A stretch of 64,000 nt of DNA from Patescibacteria group bacterium (GTDB lineage: Bacteria; Patescibacteriota; Patescibacteriia; UBA2196): contig DAIUDD010000002.1 in NCBI GenBank assembly GCA_036845805.1, forward strand, positions 129,112 through 193,111, given 5' to 3'. How positions within the stretch are numbered: the stretch's first letter is position 1; every line of letters starts with the position of its first letter. Positions 9,074-47,021 of this stretch are shown here, in pieces. Below the pieces are notes generated by a model, which was not told where the DNA came from, made no database searches, and saw nothing but the letters and a program-made list of their open reading frames with translations. Both the position numbers and the translations under genes were made by a program.

Positions 9074-9586
9074 TTACTTAATTGCTAATAATTCCACTTC
9101 AAAAATCAAAGTGGCTTTGGCTGGAATAGCACCGGGGATACCCTCTTCGCCATAAGCTAAATTATAGGGAATGGTTAATTTTCTTTTTTCACCAACTTTC
9201 ATGCCAGAAACCCCCTGATCCCAACCAGCAATCACCCGGCCAGCACCTAGCGGAAATTCAAATGGCGCGCCACGATCAAGACTAGAATCAAATTTAGTGC
9301 CATCAGTCAACCAGCCGGTATAATGAACCACGGCAATCTCGCCAGCCATAATTTGTCTATCACCGGTGCCCACATTTAATGTTTCAATTTGTAATTCCAT
9401 ATTATTATTTATTTTTTCTGGTTCTTTGGGTGTAGTCTCTGCCAACTGGTTCTCTTCTTTGGTTAAAACATTTTCTGTAGTCGGATTAGAAATATCGGCA
9501 ACATCGGGCTTGATAAAAACCAAATAAACAGCCAGAATGACAATTATTAATATGACTAATAAGGCAATGCTTTCGCGCGTATTCAT
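9074..9586 (-). CDS. FKBP-type peptidyl-prolyl cis-trans isomerase, membrane-anchored
   Basis: N-terminal TM then FKBP domain ('[55 protein letters not shown]...[12 protein letters not shown]'). Confidence 0.8.
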
Positions 9587-9628
9587 AAATATAAAAAACA
9601 AATTTTATATTAAAAAATATTTTTCAAT

Positions 9629-9672
9629 TGCCTGGGGGCAGAACCCCGATGGACATCGGGGCGCAAGGATAC
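9629..9672 (-). pseudogene. Degenerate 3' fragment of tRNA-Phe (duplicate of anticodon-stem-to-3'-end region, T-stem replaced by a CCCCGATG..CATCGGGG hairpin)
   Basis: 27-nt identical repeat 'atatttttcaattgcctgggggcagaa' at 9611-9637 and 9697-9723; reverse complement reads ...ATCCTTGCG[CCCCGATGTCCATCGGGG]TTCTGCCCCCAGGCA. Confidence 0.5.
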
Positions 9673-9710
9673 ATTCCACAACGGGTTTTGATATTAAAAT
9701 ATTTTTCAAT

Positions 9711-9782
9711 TGCCTGGGGGCAGAATCGGACTGCCGACGCAAGGATTTTCAGTCCTTCGCTCTACCACTGAGCTACCCAGGC
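9711..9782 (-). tRNA. tRNA-Phe (GAA)
   Basis: GCCTGGG-TA-GCTC..GAGC-AAGGA-CTGAAAA-TCCTT-..-GGCAG-TCCGATT-CTGCC-CCCAGGC-A. Anticodon GAA. Confidence 0.8.
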
Positions 9783-9789
9783 ATTAATT

Positions 9790-9830
9790 TGGGCATGGAT
9801 GGATTTGAACCATCGACATTCACCTTATAC
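9790..9830 (-). pseudogene. tRNA 3'-half fragment (Ile-like; anticodon loop to acceptor 3' strand CATGCCCA)
   Basis: Reverse complement TATAAGGTGAATGTCGATGGTTCAAATCCATCCATGCCCA parallels the 3' half of the adjacent intact tRNA-Ile. Confidence 0.45.
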
Positions 9831-9876
9831 TAAATATAATTACTGCGTTCGCAAAAAATATAAATGTCAAGACAAT

Positions 9877-9952
9877 TGGTGGGCACGGGTGGATTTGAAC
9901 CACCGACATCCACCTTATAAGGGTGGCGCTCTAACCGCTGAGCTACGTGCCC
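9877..9952 (-). tRNA. tRNA-Ile (TAT), CCA encoded
   Basis: GGGCACG-TA-GCTC..GAGC-G-CCACC-CTTATAA-GGTGG-..-GGTGG-TTCAAAT-CCACC-CGTGCCC-A-CCA. Anticodon read as UAU. Confidence 0.6.
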
Positions 9953-9990
9953 AGTGGTTTTAACATTTACATTTTATTGCTCTCTGGTAA

Positions 9991-10074
9991 TTATAAGGGT
10001 GGCGCTCTAACCCGCCCGCCTCGCAAGCGAGAGCGTTGCGGGCAGGCCGCTCGACTACATGCCCTTTATTATAA
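9991..10074 (-). pseudogene. tRNA 5'-half fragment (acceptor GGGCATG + D-arm + anticodon stem/loop) with a 35-nt GC-rich palindromic element inserted in the D-loop
   Basis: Reverse complement GGGCATGTAGTCGAGCGG[CCTGCCCGCAACGCTCTCGCTTGCGAGGCGGGCGG]GTTAGAGCGCCACCCTTATAA. The 5' acceptor GGGCATG is exactly complementary to the 3' fragment at 9790-9830 (CATGCCC). Confidence 0.45.
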
Positions 10075-39603: not shown

Positions 39604-39957
39604 TTATTCTTCATCAATATCGTCTGTTTTTTCTTCTTCTTCAATTTTTATTAAATCTTCTTCTTCGCCAACCACAGCGGTAGTTTCTTCAATTTTTTTC
39701 AGTTTTAATTTTTTTACTAAATTTTCATAATTGGTCGGGTTATCTTTACTTAAAAATTTAAGCAAGCGGCGGCGTTGGCCAATCTTACGCAAAAGACCGC
39801 GCCGAGAAGAAAAATCTTTCTTGTGAATTTTTAAATGTTCAGTTAATTCACGAATTTCTTCTGACAAAATTGCAATTTGCACCTCAGAAGAACCAGAATC
39901 GCTTTCATGAACACGGAATTTTTTGATAATCGCTTCTTTTCTTTTTTTATCTAACAT
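39604..39957 (-). CDS. rpsO: 30S ribosomal protein S15 with acidic C-terminal tail
   Basis: 'GSSEVQIAILSEEIRELTEHLKIHKKDFSSRRGLLRKIGQRRRLLKFL' is the S15 signature. Unusual ~30-aa E/D-rich extension. Start uncertain (39957 or 40002). Confidence 0.75.
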   Translation of the reverse strand: MLDKKRKEAIIKKFRVHESDSGSSEVQIAILSEEIRELTEHLKIHKKDFSSRRGLLRKIGQRRRLLKFLSKDNPTNYENLVKKLKLKKIEETTAVVGEEEDLIKIEEEEKTDDIDEE

Positions 39958-40200
39958 AAATTTATAGCCACGATAATCCGAGTTATAAGCCAAGTTAGAC
40001 AAAATGTTAGCTAAGAACCCAGAAAATCGTCATTAATTGATGTTTTGTATTTTAGCATAAAGTTAAAAATCTTGCAAGTTTGGCAAAAATAAGGTAAAGT
40101 GAGAATAACGATTTTAATCATGATGGCTTGCTTGCAACACCAATAAATCGGCTGGCGCGATGGGCAGAAAATAGTAATCTAAACATCAATTTTAAAAAAT

Positions 40201-40429
40201 AAGTTTTATTACTTGTGCCCTCATAGTTCAATGGAGTTCGAACCAGTAAAGCAAGCAAACCGCTTTGCTTGCGATGGTGAGAACGGGTTTGGGCTTGTGC
40301 CAATAGGCACGACCAAAACCAAGAACACCAGCCTTCTAAGCTGGTTATGTAGGTCCGCCCTAAACCATAAAGGTTTAGGGTGCCATGCACCTTTATGGTG
40401 CATGGCGATTCCTTATTCTTTGTGTTAAC
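40201..40429 (+). pseudogene. Degenerate tRNA-Arg(TCT) copy disrupted by a ~90-nt insertion in the D-loop and a double-hairpin insertion in the T-loop
   Basis: Contains GTGCCCTCATAGTTCAATGGA (acceptor/D 5' side), then ..AGAAC-ACCAGC-CTTCTAA-GCTGGT (intact anticodon arm, anticodon TCT), then TATGTAGGTCCG-[CCCTAAACC..GGTTTAGGG][CGCCATGCACC..GGTGCATGGCG]-ATTCCT (T-loop TCCGATTCCT split by two hairpins). No acceptor 3' strand. Confidence 0.45.
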
Positions 40430-40690
40430 ATGTATTATCATTATATTTTATTACTTGCCAATAGAAGTTTATATAATGGTTTTTCTAACGATTTAAAAAC
40501 TAGATTTTTTGAACATGAAAAAGGCAAGGTAAAATCTACGAAAAATTTGAGACCAGTCAAATTAATCTATTATGAAGCTTTTTTAAATAAAAATGACGCT
40601 TTAAGGAGAGAAAAATATTTCAAAACGAATAAAGGCAAAAAGATGACTAAAATAATATTAAGGGAGTTTTTTAATCAGATAGGCGAATAA
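40430..40690 (+). CDS. GIY-YIG family endonuclease (small Slx1/UPF0213-type, homing-endonuclease-like)
   Basis: 86 aa 'MYYHYILLLANRSLYNGFSNDLKTRFFEHEKGKVKSTKNLRPVKLIYYEAFLNKNDALRREKYFKTNKGKKMTKIIL', matching the GIY-(x10)-YIG pattern, the 'R..EH' motif and the C-terminal 'REK.LK' signature. Confidence 0.7.
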   Translation: MYYHYILLLANRSLYNGFSNDLKTRFFEHEKGKVKSTKNLRPVKLIYYEAFLNKNDALRREKYFKTNKGKKMTKIILREFFNQIGE

Positions 40691-40776
40691 GTTTTATTAC
40701 TTGTGCCCTCATAGTTCAATGGATACTTTTAATTTGCCAGTGGCAAATTAAAAGACCAGCCTTCTATTTATTTTTT
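40689..40776 (+). pseudogene. Second degenerate tRNA-Arg(TCT) 5' fragment (acceptor/D 5' side + hairpin insert + anticodon stem/loop), truncated
   Basis: 35-nt exact direct repeat of 40201-40235 (aagttttattacttgtgccctcatagttcaatgga), then hairpin CTTTTAATTTGCCA-GTGGCAAATTAAAAG, then ACCAGCCTTCTA (anticodon 5' stem + loop), then a T-run. Confidence 0.45.
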
Positions 40777-40848
40777 GCCCCCGTAGCACAATGGATAGTG
40801 CAGTAGCCTTCTAAGCTATTTATAGAGGTCCGATTCCTCTCGGGGGTA
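40777..40848 (+). tRNA. tRNA-Arg (TCT), intact
   Basis: GCCCCCG-TA-GCAC..GTGC-A-GTAGC-CTTCTAA-GCTAT-TTAT-AGAGG-TCCGATT-CCTCT-CGGGGGT-A. Confidence 0.75.
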
Positions 40849-40998
40849 CTTAGAAATGTAGGTCCGAGGGTTTCGCGGTGCCTGTCGGCACATCGCTCAA
40901 CCCGTTGTGGCTACAAAAAGTCAAGCAGTTGACTTTTTGTTTAACGCCACAACTCCACACTGAGGATATAGGTAATAAAATTTATTTTATAAATTAAA

Positions 40999-42246
40999 AT
41001 GGATCAAGAAATTTCCAATTTAATCAAAAAAGAAGAAGCTCGCCAAAGAGAGAGAATTACTTTGATCGCTTCGGAAAATTATGCTTCGCCAAACGTGCGC
41101 GAAGTTTTAAGTTCTGTTTTGGCTAATAAATATTCTGAGGGCGAACCTGGCAAAAGATATTATCAAGGCAATGAAATTATTGATGAAATTGAAACTCTAA
41201 CTAATGCTCGTGCATTAAAAGTTTTTGGTTTAAAAGAAAAAGATTGGCATGTAAATTGCAAAGCGGTTTCCGCTTCTATTGCTAATTTGGCAGTGATTTC
41301 TGGTTTACTAGAACCAGGGCAAAAAATTTTAGCCATGGATTTGACTCATGGCGGACACCTGTCTCATGGTTGGCAATTACCTTCAGGCAAACCAATTTCT
41401 CTTTCCTCAAAAATTTTTAAGGTCAGTTATTATGGTGTTAATAAAAAAACTAATCTTTTTGGTTATAATCAAATTTTGAAAATTGCTAAAAAGTTTAAGC
41501 CCGATTTAATAATTTCTGGCGGCACGGCCTATGCGCGGGATATTAATTATAAAAAAATGTCGGTTATTGCCAAAGCTGTTGGCGCTTATTATTTGGCTGA
41601 CATTGCTCATGAAGCTGGTTTAATTGCTGGCCGAGCGATAAATTCTCCATTTCCTTATGCTGATGTGGTCACCATGTCCACGCAAAAAACTTTAAGAGGT
41701 CCACGCGGCGCTATTATTATTTGTAAAAAAGAATTACAGGAAAAAATTGATAAAGGAATTTTTCCCGGGCTGATGGGTGGCCCTTGTGATAATGTTATTG
41801 CCGCCATTGCTGTTTGTCTAAAAGAAGCGCAAACAGGTGCCTTTAAAAAATATACCAAGCAAACAATAGTTAATGCCAAAGTTTTAGCTCAAGAATTGAA
41901 AAAATATGGTTTTAAAATTGTTACTGATGGTACAGACAAACATTTATTTTTAATTGATTTGAGAAATCTACCAACTGGCGGAAAAAATATCAATGGTCAC
42001 GAGGCTGCTGTTTTATTAGATAAAGCAGGTTTGGTTTGCAATAAAAATACTGTTCCATATGAAACAGGCACGCCCATGAAGCCCTCGGGCATCCGCCTTG
42101 GCACACCAGCTTGCACCACTCGGGGCATGAAAGAGGGTGAAATGAAAATTATTGCTAAATGGATTTATGAAGTTTTGGTTTTAAATAGAAAATCAGAAGA
42201 TGTACTTAAAGAAGTAAAACAGTTGACTAAGAGATTTAAGATTTAA
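40999..42246 (+). CDS. glyA: Serine hydroxymethyltransferase
   Basis: 'LIASENYASPNVREVLSSVLANKYSEG', PLP-Lys region 'VVTMSTQKTLRGPRGAII'; 415 aa. Confidence 0.9.
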   Translation: MDQEISNLIKKEEARQRERITLIASENYASPNVREVLSSVLANKYSEGEPGKRYYQGNEIIDEIETLTNARALKVFGLKEKDWHVNCKAVSASIANLAVISGLLEPGQKILAMDLTHGGHLSHGWQLPSGKPISLSSKIFKVSYYGVNKKTNLFGYNQILKIAKKFKPDLIISGGTAYARDINYKKMSVIAKAVGAYYLADIAHEAGLIAGRAINSPFPYADVVTMSTQKTLRGPRGAIIICKKELQEKIDKGIFPGLMGGPCDNVIAAIAVCLKEAQTGAFKKYTKQTIVNAKVLAQELKKYGFKIVTDGTDKHLFLIDLRNLPTGGKNINGHEAAVLLDKAGLVCNKNTVPYETGTPMKPSGIRLGTPACTTRGMKEGEMKIIAKWIYEVLVLNRKSEDVLKEVKQLTKRFKI

Positions 42247-42304: not shown

Positions 42305-42748
42305 ATGTTTACGCAACTTTACAATACGGTAGAACGGAAAAATATCAGAAGAGTGTTAAGGAAATCAATGCCTAAAGGTGAAAAACTTTTGTGGTCTAAA
42401 CTTAAAGCTAATCAATTAGGTTATAAATTTAAAAGACAATATAGTATCGGGGCATATATATTAGATTTTTATGCTCCCGCTATTAAACTATGCATTGAAA
42501 TTGACGGTCGAACTCATGATTATGATGAACAAACTAAATATGATGATAAAAGACAAAAATATTTGGAATCAATAGGTATAATTGTTAAAAGATTTAATAG
42601 TAAAGAAATTTTTGATAATATTAATTCAGTAGTAGAACAAATATGGTTCATCGGGGAAGATATTAAAAATAAAAACATAAAAACACCTCTCCCCAACCCT
42701 CCCCTTATTAAGGGAAGGGAGCCGACCTTCATAAGACAAATATGTTAA
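42305..42748 (+). CDS. DUF559 (Vsr/restriction-endonuclease-like fold) endonuclease-domain protein, flanked by GC-rich inverted repeats
   Basis: 'LWSKLKANQLGYKFKRQYSIGAYILDFYAPAIKLCIEIDGRTHDYDEQTKYDDKRQKYLESIGIIVKRF' is typical of DUF559. The last ~20 codons read through the right-hand repeat. Confidence 0.65.
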   Translation: MFTQLYNTVERKNIRRVLRKSMPKGEKLLWSKLKANQLGYKFKRQYSIGAYILDFYAPAIKLCIEIDGRTHDYDEQTKYDDKRQKYLESIGIIVKRFNSKEIFDNINSVVEQIWFIGEDIKNKNIKTPLPNPPLIKGREPTFIRQIC

Positions 42749-46434: not shown

Positions 46435-47021
46435 ATTTTTGGTGGAGGTGGCCGGAATTGCACCGGCGTCTAAAATTTTTTATTAAACCATTGCTACAAA
46501 GTTAGTTTGTTTAAGTGATCGACCAATTTTCTAAAACAAACAAAACAAATTGGCTTAAGCCTAATTGTTCTTACTAATTTTAAGCGGCCTTAAAATTAGC
46601 CAGCTTGTATTTTATAACACCTTGGCTGCTTTTACAAGCTTTAAGCAGTAAGATGGCGGTTGGATTTAAGCAACCACATAAGCTGGTTGAAAAGAAAAAG
46701 CGTGAGCTAGTTTAGCCACACCTTCTTTCACCCGGCTAAAAAGATTGGCATTTATTGTGCCGTGAATCAGTTTTAAGAGATGATTCAACTCTCTTTGATA
46801 AGTTTAATAGCTAAATTTTATCAAATTTGAACACCCCCATAATATTAAACTCAAAGTTCAAAATGCCAGCTCTGCGCCGGCATCCCGCATTTTGTGGGTT
46901 GGTTGTCCAAAGAACAACCAAAACTCAAAATTTAAGGTAAAAAGTTAGAATTATTGTAGCTTAAAAAATAAAAGATGTCAAATATAATAAAAAACTTTTA
47001 AAATATCTTATTATATTAAAA

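Follow-up and report, generated by a model that had tools for sequence, protein, structure and literature searches.

How does a tRNA gene come to lie in pieces around a very small nuclease gene, with one intact copy still in place? We encountered this question in a Patescibacteria group bacterium (assembly GCA_036845805.1, contig DAIUDD010000002.1), of which we analyzed positions 129,112 to 193,111, a stretch of 64,000 nt that we refer to as the window. The genome is AT-rich, and the interval 40198-40983, which lies between rpsO (minus strand, 39604-40002) and glyA (40999-42246), contains one intact tRNA-Arg(TCT) gene, three broken tRNA-Arg pieces (psi1, psi2 and psi3), an exact 38-nt direct repeat as well as one open reading frame (ORF) encoding an 86-aa GIY-YIG protein, the sole ORF with a family match between the two flanking genes. 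The original prediction for this DNA held that the GIY-YIG gene had apparently colonized the tRNA-Arg gene, or was carried by an element that targeted it, while a working tRNA copy was kept, and this core idea is borne out by an empty site in a relative and by the recurrence of the same layout in many unrelated genomes. Our preferred explanation, to which we assign a probability of roughly 55%, is that a compact selfish cassette of hairpins and a nuclease gene targets tRNA loops and preserves its target by duplicating it.

The cassette consists of two adjacent hairpins, an AT-rich linker of ~20 nt and the 86-aa GIY-YIG gene, and is located in the T-loop of the resident tRNA-Arg(UCU). The ORF is co-directional with the old tRNA gene and lies downstream of its promoter. 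The features of the locus are listed below; codes such as L102 or L103 denote comparison loci or contigs from other genomes and assemblies.

40072-40100, plus strand: promoter-like site of the old tRNA-Arg gene, with -35 TTGCAA, a 17-nt spacer and -10 TAAAGT (read from the sequence)
40198-40235, plus strand: first copy of the 38-nt direct repeat, AATAA plus 17-nt leader plus tRNA positions 1-19 (exact repeat of 40686-40723)
40217-40413, plus strand: psi1, 5' portion of the resident tRNA-Arg(TCT): acceptor 5' strand through T-loop, with ATTCCT (comparison with L103)
40236-40325, plus strand: D-loop module, a ~90-nt three-helix palindromic element with the motifs AACGGGTT, CYGC loop and TGTGCC..AGGCAC (covariance model R1, 119 bits)
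40328-40344, plus strand: perfect anticodon arm of psi1, CCAGC CTTCTAA GCTGG (sequence and fold)
40358-40407, plus strand: hairpin cassette of hp1 (40358-40380) and hp2 (40381-40407), both perfect (sequence, inverted-repeat pair I4 and fold)
40430-40690, plus strand: single-domain GIY-YIG nuclease gene, 86 aa, UPF0213 / bacterial Slx1-like (PF01541 and profile matches)
40686-40723, plus strand: second copy of the direct repeat, which provides the last codon and the stop codon of the ORF (exact repeat)
40705-40766, plus strand: psi2, another 5' fragment of this tRNA type (repeats D1, D8 and I5; compared with the homologous intact tRNA in L102 and L103)
40777-40849, plus strand: the sole intact tRNA-Arg(TCT) of the locus, 'type 1', with acceptor GCCCCCG and D-stem GCAC (ARAGORN; Rfam RF00005, 65.4 bits)
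40856-40866, plus strand: T-arm 5' fragment ATGTAGGTCCG, before the inverted module (exact 11-nt repeat, D5, of 40347-40357)
40867-40953, minus strand: second three-helix module, inverted, in the T-loop of the resident tRNA 3' remnant (R1 match, alignment A5)
40954-40983, plus strand: psi3, a decayed remnant of the resident tRNA's 3' end (TCCACAC TGAGGAT A) with the trailer TAGGTAATAAAATTT (comparison with L103; inverted repeats I1 and I2)

All the elements that had been predicted from the sequence are present: the intact tRNA and its broken copies; a first copy with a ~90-nt D-loop insert, a perfect anticodon arm and two perfect T-loop hairpins; the ORF with its stop codon in the repeat; the truncated second copy with its hairpin; and the structured downstream segment with a T-arm-like start. 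The direct repeat is exact as predicted, but it is 38 rather than 35 nt long (40198-40235 = 40686-40723; BLAST E = 7.6e-16 within the window). Psi1 (fold z-score = -7.3) is interrupted in both the D-loop and the T-loop and is followed by no 3' acceptor strand. The T-loop insertion point of hp1 and hp2 falls at positions 57/58, between GGTCCG and ATTCC; the two hairpins are mutual reverse complements over their apical 11 nt, and a 16-nt linker joins the end of psi1 (..ATTCCT) to the ATG of the GIY-YIG gene. That such a hairpin pair directly 5' of the ATG is a recurrent feature of the gene family had gone unnoticed in the original prediction. In psi2, a 29-nt perfect hairpin (40726-40754) takes the place of the 3' side of the D-arm, and the copy breaks off after position 37, within the anticodon loop (..CCTTCTA), followed by 10 T-rich bases and the intact tRNA, the T-loop of which reads TCCGATT, with C at position 55. 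The segment 3' of the intact tRNA is strongly structured (fold z = -4.5): the ATGTAGGTCCG fragment breaks off after GGTCCG, the same break point as in psi1, with this junction also kept in L102 and L105, and in psi3 the T-stem and acceptor 3' strands are decayed, with the trailer TAGGTAATAAAATTT complementary to the leader TTTTATTAC at 40204-40212.

Only the intact gene is recognizable as a tRNA by standard scoring. ARAGORN calls it alone, and the broken copies give no Rfam RF00005 score in 40000-41100 even at E <= 10; over the same interval, the inserts match no Rfam family at the gathering threshold or at E <= 10. No further copy of the 38-nt repeat, the hairpins or the ORF turned up within the 64-kb window. 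There is no tyrosine or serine recombinase gene in the insert, where the duplicated tRNA portion is the 5' part, and no gene for a Y1 HUH transposase (TnpA/RAYT) at the locus.

The site at 40072-40100 probably drives psi1, the GIY-YIG gene and the tRNA, judging from its sequence. The corresponding TTGCAA-17-TAGAAT arrangement is conserved 5' of the tRNA-Arg unit in L102, L103 and L105; a promoter consensus scan detected only the minus-strand use of the palindromic -35. This TTGCAA (40072-40077) is apparently common to two divergent promoter-like sites (40049-40100), one on the minus strand towards rpsO (-10 TAAAAT) and the other on the plus strand towards the tRNA-Arg array (-10 TAAAGT), both conserved in relatives. 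The ~90 nt from the promoter to psi1 (40106-40197) are lineage-specific, being absent from L102/L003 and partly alignable in L004.

We searched for homologues of the serine hydroxymethyltransferase (SHMT) encoded by glyA, the closest source-named of which are labelled Patescibacteria, and compared their contigs at the rpsO-glyA interval. In L103 (SHMT 81% identical), the gene order is rnc, rpsO, 299 nt, glyA, and the 299 nt contain the same promoter, the leader AAATTTTATTTCC, a single tRNA-Arg(TCT) GCCCTCATAGTTCAATGGATAGAACACCAGCCTTCTAAGCTGGTTATGTAGGTTCGATTCCTACTGAGGGTA and a complementary trailer. With its inserts removed, psi1 is the L103 tRNA through ATTCCT, except for a lost TA and one T-loop base, and the tail of the array matches the L103 3' end ATTCCTAC TGAGGGT A TGGGAAATAAAATTT. 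Because both match the single tRNA of L103, psi1 and psi3 correspond to the two halves of the resident tRNA with its T-loop split; by this sequence comparison, the two pieces, now ~500 nt apart, are halves of one resident gene separated by everything that lies between them. The sequence of the 38-nt repeat is single-copy in L103, and in the window, L102, L003 and L004, the cassette lies at the same place as the empty site of L103.

The tail of the array had also been considered as merely an inverted copy of psi1, as an alignment suggested, but L102, L105 and L103 show it to be the resident tRNA 3' end with an inverted module; the ambiguity arises from the self-complementarity of the acceptor stem together with the complementarity of leader and trailer. 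Across this clade, the tRNA-Arg leader (TTTTATTAC..) and trailer (..GTAATAAAA) are complementary over ~12-14 bp, extending the acceptor stem to a long helix. In the window, the leader at 40204-40212 / 40692-40700 pairs with 40972-40980, and leader-trailer duplexes are also found in L104 and L106. The direct repeats of the window, L104 and L106 all begin near the base of this helix (-17 to -19). We rejected both the helix base and the transcription start as a general determinant of the left repeat boundary: the pairing is clear only for the tRNA-Arg genes of this clade, and the promoter is farther upstream.

In L003/L102 and L004, the GIY-YIG proteins of which are 76% and 80% identical, respectively, to that of the window, the order is promoter, psi1 with a D-loop insert and T-loop hairpins, ORF and tRNA-Arg; in L102, the ORF is followed by the intact tRNA-Arg, GTAGGTCCG, the inverted block, the tRNA 3' end, the trailer and glyA. 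The window and L102 share 96% identity over the hp1-hp2 cassette, compared with just 39% at third codon positions of the ORF, and in L004, hp1 has four compensatory changes and hp2 is missing. In these relatives, psi1 and the downstream tRNA share a repeat of just 13-20 nt; the exact 38-nt repeat of the window is therefore younger than the cassette, having come from either gene conversion or re-insertion. The intact paralogue also differs by lineage, being 'type 1' (D-stem GCAC) in the window but 'type 2' (D-stem GTTC) in L102 and L105.

Two further observations concern these relatives. The T-loop of the intact tRNA-Arg (40831-40837) reads TCCGATT, with C at the near-universal U55, in the window, L102 and L105, which bear modules or cassettes, and the broken copies with T-loop insertions mostly read TCCG too; the T-loop is TTCGATT in L103, a plain empty site, and in L104 and L106, which have hairpin or module insertions in the D-arm and none in the T-loop. 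In addition, a small ORF of the DUF559 / MTES_1575 family (Vsr-like endonuclease fold) is located between glyA and folD in the window (42305-42748) and in L105 (3282-3659) and is missing at that position in L103, L104 and L106, making it a second nuclease gene of variable presence less than 2 kb from the array.

The protein itself is a bare catalytic domain. It matches Pfam PF01541 over residues 1-70 (45.7 bits vs a cut-off of 22.6, E = 8.4e-12), and 37 aligned homologues vary little or not at all at its residues Y5, Y15, G17, R25, H29, E49, R60 and E61; the conserved Tyr, Tyr-x-Gly, Arg, His and Glu positions are taken to be catalytic, as is general for the fold. The family profile matches PDB entries 1zg2 (E = 1.2e-11) and 1ywl (2.9e-10), both nuclear magnetic resonance structures of UPF0213 proteins (BH0048 and EF2693), and weakly SLX1 (7wme). 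By these matches, the window protein is a member of the minimal UPF0213/Slx1-like branch and not a Seg/I-TevI-type enzyme: it scores 16.6 bits against TIGR01453 (group I intron endonuclease), below the cut-off of 56, stops after the catalytic domain and has no PHROG family match. The family comprises 22,134 clusters at 50% identity (E <= 1e-3), with members nearly all 85-130 aa long, and was described in a 2006 survey of GIY-YIG proteins as a vertically inherited branch of unknown role, a fusion to a TrmH-like tRNA methyltransferase also being noted there (PMC1564403). The ratio of nonsynonymous to synonymous substitution rates (dN/dS) is 0.06-0.17 in comparison with L003 and L004, with dS of about 1-2, which indicates strong purifying selection on the ORF. 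We rejected two other placements of the gene, a phage origin, given a single relative in 2.9 million viral contigs, and a role in anti-phage defense, given the lack of a PADLOC match.

The ORFs of this family often have no stop codon of their own and are read into the duplicated target: in L005 (590-607), the stop is a TAG inside the tRNA, and in the window, it is in the repeat (40686-40690). Processing of the tRNA 5' end by RNase P would then take off the mRNA's stop codon or cut right beside it.

We surveyed 80 loci, one genome per species, encoding homologues 44-57% identical, from Patescibacteria, Bacteroidota, Omnitrophota, Planctomycetota, Nitrospirota and others. A tRNA gene on the same strand was present within <=300 nt at 39 of the 80 loci, and one on the opposite strand at none of them (0/80). 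Direct repeats flanking the ORF (E < 1e-5) were detected at 21 of 77 loci, compared with 1 of 144 shifted control positions, and this lone control match contained a second GIY-YIG copy. The repeats are mostly exact and 18-125 nt long, and at the inspected loci, the repeat is the 5' part of the gene just downstream of the ORF. In the tRNA cases, its start lies anywhere from ~20 nt upstream of tRNA position 1 to ~12 nt into the gene. The repeats end at breaks within the targets, as follows (a slash marks a junction).

L005: tRNA-Arg(TCT), repeat of 64 nt, to GGTTCG/
L030: tRNA-Ser, repeat of 71 nt, to GGTTCG/
L018, L079, L052: tRNA-Leu(TAA), repeat to CTTA/
L065: tRNA-Trp, repeat to CTCCAA/
L021: tRNA-Gln, repeat to the D-loop
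L040, L042, L050, L059, L081: 5' untranslated region and first codons of an epimerase gene (MKILVTGGAGFI) in Bacteroidota/Balneolales, 33-125 nt, ending GGGxTTCA/
Other class: tRNA-Ser 3' end, ..CTCCGCCA/TGTACCGnnCGGTACATGG/CTCCGCC...
L039: partial hairpin-bearing copy downstream of the ORF

The repeats of L018, L079 and L065 (36-55 nt) end in the anticodon loop; more generally, the junction is usually in the D-, anticodon or T-loop. In the tRNA cases, the upstream copy runs up to the loop and gives way to hp1 and hp2; the loop then resumes for 4-7 nt, and a short AT-rich linker leads to the ATG. An hp1-hp2-like architecture was found in L005, L030, L016, L018, L079, L052, L021 and L039, with the hairpin units bracketed by CG..CG or TA..TA. 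Since an automatic two-hairpin detector took the tRNA's own arms and missed imperfect stems, it was replaced by inspection of the repeat-bearing loci and by minimum free energy statistics, in which the 67-nt windows upstream of the ORFs averaged -18.5 kcal/mol vs -11.4 in control windows.

Clusters of the protein family correspond to target classes. Tandem neighbor ORFs fall in different clusters, which argues for successive independent invasions rather than local duplication, and the sequences thus indicate that a regenerated target can be invaded repeatedly and independently. Two tandem GIY-YIG ORFs of different clusters stand beside a single tRNA in L020, L021, L038 and L078, and in L040, the upstream repeat includes the 3' end of another GIY-YIG ORF.

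The inserts of the broken copies are not products of decay but structured elements in their own right. The D-loop insert is a conserved three-helix module of ~95 nt, with 12 compensated pairs already in the first three sequences, and the R1 covariance model also matched the minus strand of the window at 40856-40963 (53.9 bits, E = 1e-10), giving a second copy there. Elsewhere, the module occurs as a plus/minus pair in L102, as one plus and two minus copies in L105, where there is no GIY-YIG ORF, as a plus copy in L106 and as one copy in L090; the inverted copies of L102 and L105 are at the same place as that of the window. A degenerate motif scan of metagenomes gave 18 matches, with 2 loci real by the covariance model. 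Across ten copies from six loci, 19 of 32 pairs are compensated, that is, changed on both sides, and 90.8% of cells are paired; none of 500 shuffles did as well, and slid controls reached ~40%. G-U pairs are rare, and conservation of the unpaired motifs (AACGGGTT, CYGC) follows the orientation of the module itself, which suggests that the module is constrained as DNA or on both strands. Plus copies always follow the D-loop sequence ..AATGGA/ (tRNA-Arg) or GGCCG/ (tRNA-Ser), and minus copies always follow the T-loop sequence GGT(C/T)CG/. Because both contexts end GGA/ on the module's own strand, insertion of the module looks oriented and site-specific.

Elements of this kind show the same 5' duplication without the gene. 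In L090, the module is located between 21-nt direct repeats that consist of the leader and the 5' part of an intact tRNA-Ser(CGA), and in L104 and L106, hairpins lie between ~29-30-nt direct repeats, read by eye, of the leader and tRNA-Arg positions 1-12.

Taken together, these data suggest a four-step model. A structure-specific nuclease would, like Slx1, recognize branched or hairpin DNA and would nick or cut tRNA genes at exposed hairpin loops, with TCG/A or TTA/A as candidate cut motifs; the cassette would then be copied into the break by host repair; the segment from the tRNA 5' boundary (~20 nt upstream to ~12 nt inside) to the break would be duplicated, regenerating an intact target downstream of the ORF; and the regenerated target would be open to further hits. 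Regeneration of the target would explain the tandem arrays, nested fragments and ORF-less hairpin derivatives. The CG and TA brackets of the hairpin units would fit the 2-nt 3' overhangs of GIY-YIG cuts, as made by SegB, which acts in a tRNA gene cluster (PMC2330249), but both dinucleotides are palindromic and may merely extend the stems. The whole array would be read from the old tRNA promoter, tying expression of the nuclease to an essential tRNA. In its most general form, which we put forward tentatively and at somewhat less than even odds, the model casts UPF0213 GIY-YIG genes, until now regarded as housekeeping genes of unknown function, as the engine of minimal ~330-350-bp mobile elements, each made up of a hairpin cassette and a nuclease gene of 85 aa, that insert without a transposase, guided by structure, at tRNA hairpin loops (D-, anticodon and T-loops). 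At similarly restrained confidence, we would combine with it a T-arm-like site in the epimerase genes, regeneration of the target by duplication of all that lies between the 5' boundary of the gene and the break, nested fragments of pseudo-tRNAs and modules without ORFs as remains, and a possible bacterial route to interrupted or split tRNA genes.

Several observations weigh against this model. The link between the nuclease and the duplication is correlative, and we infer cleavage and transposition from sequence patterns. About half of the homologue loci have no tRNA, and most have no detectable repeat. At the window locus, the 38-nt repeat may reflect gene conversion rather than an insertion, and the switch between type 1 and type 2 of the intact paralogue is left unexplained. 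The element's own enzyme should still be able to cut the regenerated intact target beside the gene, a difficulty for classical homing; the gene has persisted at this locus in three species, with saturated synonymous divergence and purifying selection, and so looks more like a long-term or domesticated resident; and hairpins from different loci mostly show no sequence relationship, forming no simple repeated family of miniature inverted-repeat transposable elements. These last three points make a REPIN/RAYT-like arrangement the main rival, which we consider unlikely, though worth serious attention: the GIY-YIG gene would be inherited vertically, largely immobile and domesticated, and the mobile parts would be the palindromic hairpin modules on which the nuclease acts, located on either side of its gene and spreading to other tRNA loops. 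Beyond the long residence under strong purifying selection, such an arrangement would fit a gene bracketed by an inverted pair of the same module, the existence of ORF-less modules and hairpins, the hairpin scars of tRNA-Ile and tRNA-Phe in the window without a local ORF, and the DNA-level role suggested by the rarity of G-U pairs and the conservation of both orientations. However, the ORFs of many genomes are flanked by exact target repeats and occur as divergent tandem copies, which implies that the ORF moves too, and the hairpins are not a near-identical dispersed family, with no second copy in the 64-kb window.

Classical homing of the T4 Seg/Mob kind, to which the original prediction had likened the gene, appears somewhat less probable still. 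Here, cassette-free tRNA alleles would be cut and the gene would spread by double-strand-break repair, the repeats being homology arms kept identical by gene conversion. The GIY-YIG fold, the empty-site allele of L103, the highly conserved targets typical of homing (T-loop, anticodon loop, Rossmann-motif codons) and the match between the overhangs of SegB and the brackets of the hairpin units are all compatible with homing, but the 86-aa protein has no DNA-binding domain, falls far short of the TIGR01453 cut-off and has hardly any viral relatives; the intact target persists beside the gene; and the repeats include locus-specific upstream bases of each genome, pointing to duplication at insertion rather than to imported arms. 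We regard as improbable a housekeeping factor for tRNA processing or repair that is co-transcribed with the tRNA, the scars having come from unrelated recombination or hairpin elements. The strict same-strand association with tRNA genes, the selection on the ORF, and the vertical inheritance and TrmH-like fusion described for the family (PMC1564403) are what one would expect of such a factor, but close relatives lack the gene at the orthologous locus, a whole protein cluster precedes epimerase genes and shows the same duplication there, the ORF is flanked by repeats much more often than control positions are, and the tandem copies are divergent. Finally, we see very little room for the two possibilities that the original prediction named as fatal to it. 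That copy 1, alone or with the tail, is a functional tRNA with introns removed from the RNA might be suggested by its cloverleaf-like fold and by inserts placed exactly in loops, but no intron or tRNA model matches it at E <= 10, psi1 has no 3' acceptor strand, the T-stem and acceptor 3' strands of psi3 are decayed, and an intact tRNA-Arg lies between the two. An assembly artefact is countered by the L002 assembly from another sample, which is colinear with 40430-41205 at 99.5% identity and ungapped, and by L003, L102 and L004, also from other samples, which share the architecture of the locus. Group I introns are known from tRNA genes of Patescibacteria (PMC13011429), and we rejected one here because there is no Rfam intron match, the inserts are simple helices of ~50-90 nt and the 3' acceptor strand is missing.

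Elsewhere in the window, similar tRNA scars without a nearby GIY-YIG ORF, which also speak for the cassette model, are found at 9560-10064 on the minus strand. A tRNA-Ile(TAT) 5' fragment (~10064-9991) with a GC-rich D-loop hairpin and a break in the anticodon loop lies upstream of the intact gene (9952-9877), and a 3' fragment from the anticodon on (9829-9790) lies downstream of it. The tRNA-Phe gene (9783-9710) is followed by a 3' fragment with a CCCCGATGTCCATCGGGG hairpin in place of the 5' side of the T-arm and then by a 30-nt exact repeat (9643-9614). The window also contains a tmRNA gene (46440-46838, minus strand; Rfam, 105 bits), which confirms that the source is bacterial.

Should the cassette model hold, the orphan UPF0213 family would gain a role as a selfish nuclease that targets tRNA loops, and its elements, at roughly half the size of IS200, would be among the smallest autonomous mobile units. 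They would also offer a testable case of long target duplication, in which the site (a loop) and the left boundary (the 5' end of the tRNA) are both defined and the element has a single gene. The model would account for broken tRNA copies and structured 'non-coding RNAs' near tRNA genes in the small genomes of Patescibacteria, with better annotation as a result, and would provide a bacterial parallel to the events invoked for intron-containing and split tRNAs of archaea. An 86-aa loop-specific nuclease could, moreover, be of practical use as a tool.

Each of the known systems that this locus resembles shares part of its features. Like SegB and the other Seg/Mob genes of T-even phages (PMC2330249), the gene is an intron-less GIY-YIG gene among tRNA genes, with a conserved target and selfish behavior. 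Seg enzymes, however, are two-domain proteins of more than 200 aa with a DNA-binding domain that spread by co-conversion of markers without target duplication, whereas here a bare UPF0213 domain is encoded in cellular genomes, accompanied by a cassette of hairpins and by duplication of the target's 5' part. Closer in some respects are the restriction-modification units with long target duplication (Furuta et al. 2010, PMC2853133), in which a nuclease unit without a transposase or integrase is flanked by long direct target repeats of variable length, with an empty site recognizable in a relative and the mechanism unexplained. By that description, which calls for direct repeats longer than 30 bp that align to a single-copy sequence of an empty-site genome, the 38-nt repeat of the window, single-copy in L103 although perhaps refreshed by gene conversion, and the 33-125-nt repeats of other loci qualify as long target duplications. 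The present element differs from these units in being ~10 times smaller (around 330-350 bp), specific for the site or structure of tRNA loops and equipped with a conserved hairpin cassette, and its repeat always extends from near the 5' boundary of the gene to the break.

REPIN-RAYT systems and IS200/IS605 elements depend on a Y1 HUH transposase, produce no long duplication on insertion and occur as near-identical dispersed copies. What they have in common with the locus described here is palindromes that matter at the DNA level, a single nuclease gene flanked by cognate hairpins, ORF-less derivatives, vertical inheritance and purifying selection of the nuclease, and oriented insertion by a short motif; the differences are the GIY-YIG enzyme, the mostly locus-specific hairpins and the long 5' target duplications. 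Integrase islands and prophages in tRNA genes (10.1101/2022.07.05.498093; PMC3293823) likewise have a partial tRNA on one side and a complete tRNA on the other. Such islands span kilobases and bring along both a recombinase gene and the replacement piece of the tRNA, unlike the insert studied here, which has no recombinase, measures ~0.3 kb and breaks its target inside loops. The replacement piece of bacterial integrase elements is usually the 3' part of the tRNA; here, the 5' part is duplicated, and the integrase-made tRNA duplication raised in the original prediction does not fit.

An organellar parallel may be the atp6/ORF360 region in mitochondria of the fungus Allomyces, where, according to work by Paquin, Lang and colleagues, an endonuclease ORF is reportedly accompanied by a duplicated gene portion that keeps the gene functional, with two-hairpin elements said to occur at such sites; this is a likeness of description, the Allomyces case being eukaryotic, with the 3' end duplicated and a different enzyme architecture. 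The combination of a bare UPF0213 gene, a hairpin cassette, insertion into a loop and 5' target duplication has no description in the open-access literature that we searched. The layout points to a kind of mobile gene, very small and apparently undescribed so far, that enters tRNA loops while sparing tRNA function, and there is a substantial chance that the locus in the window represents such a distinct class of minimal mobile element, set apart from phage homing endonucleases by its duplicated target, from restriction-modification units by its size and loop specificity, and from integrase islands by the lack of a recombinase.

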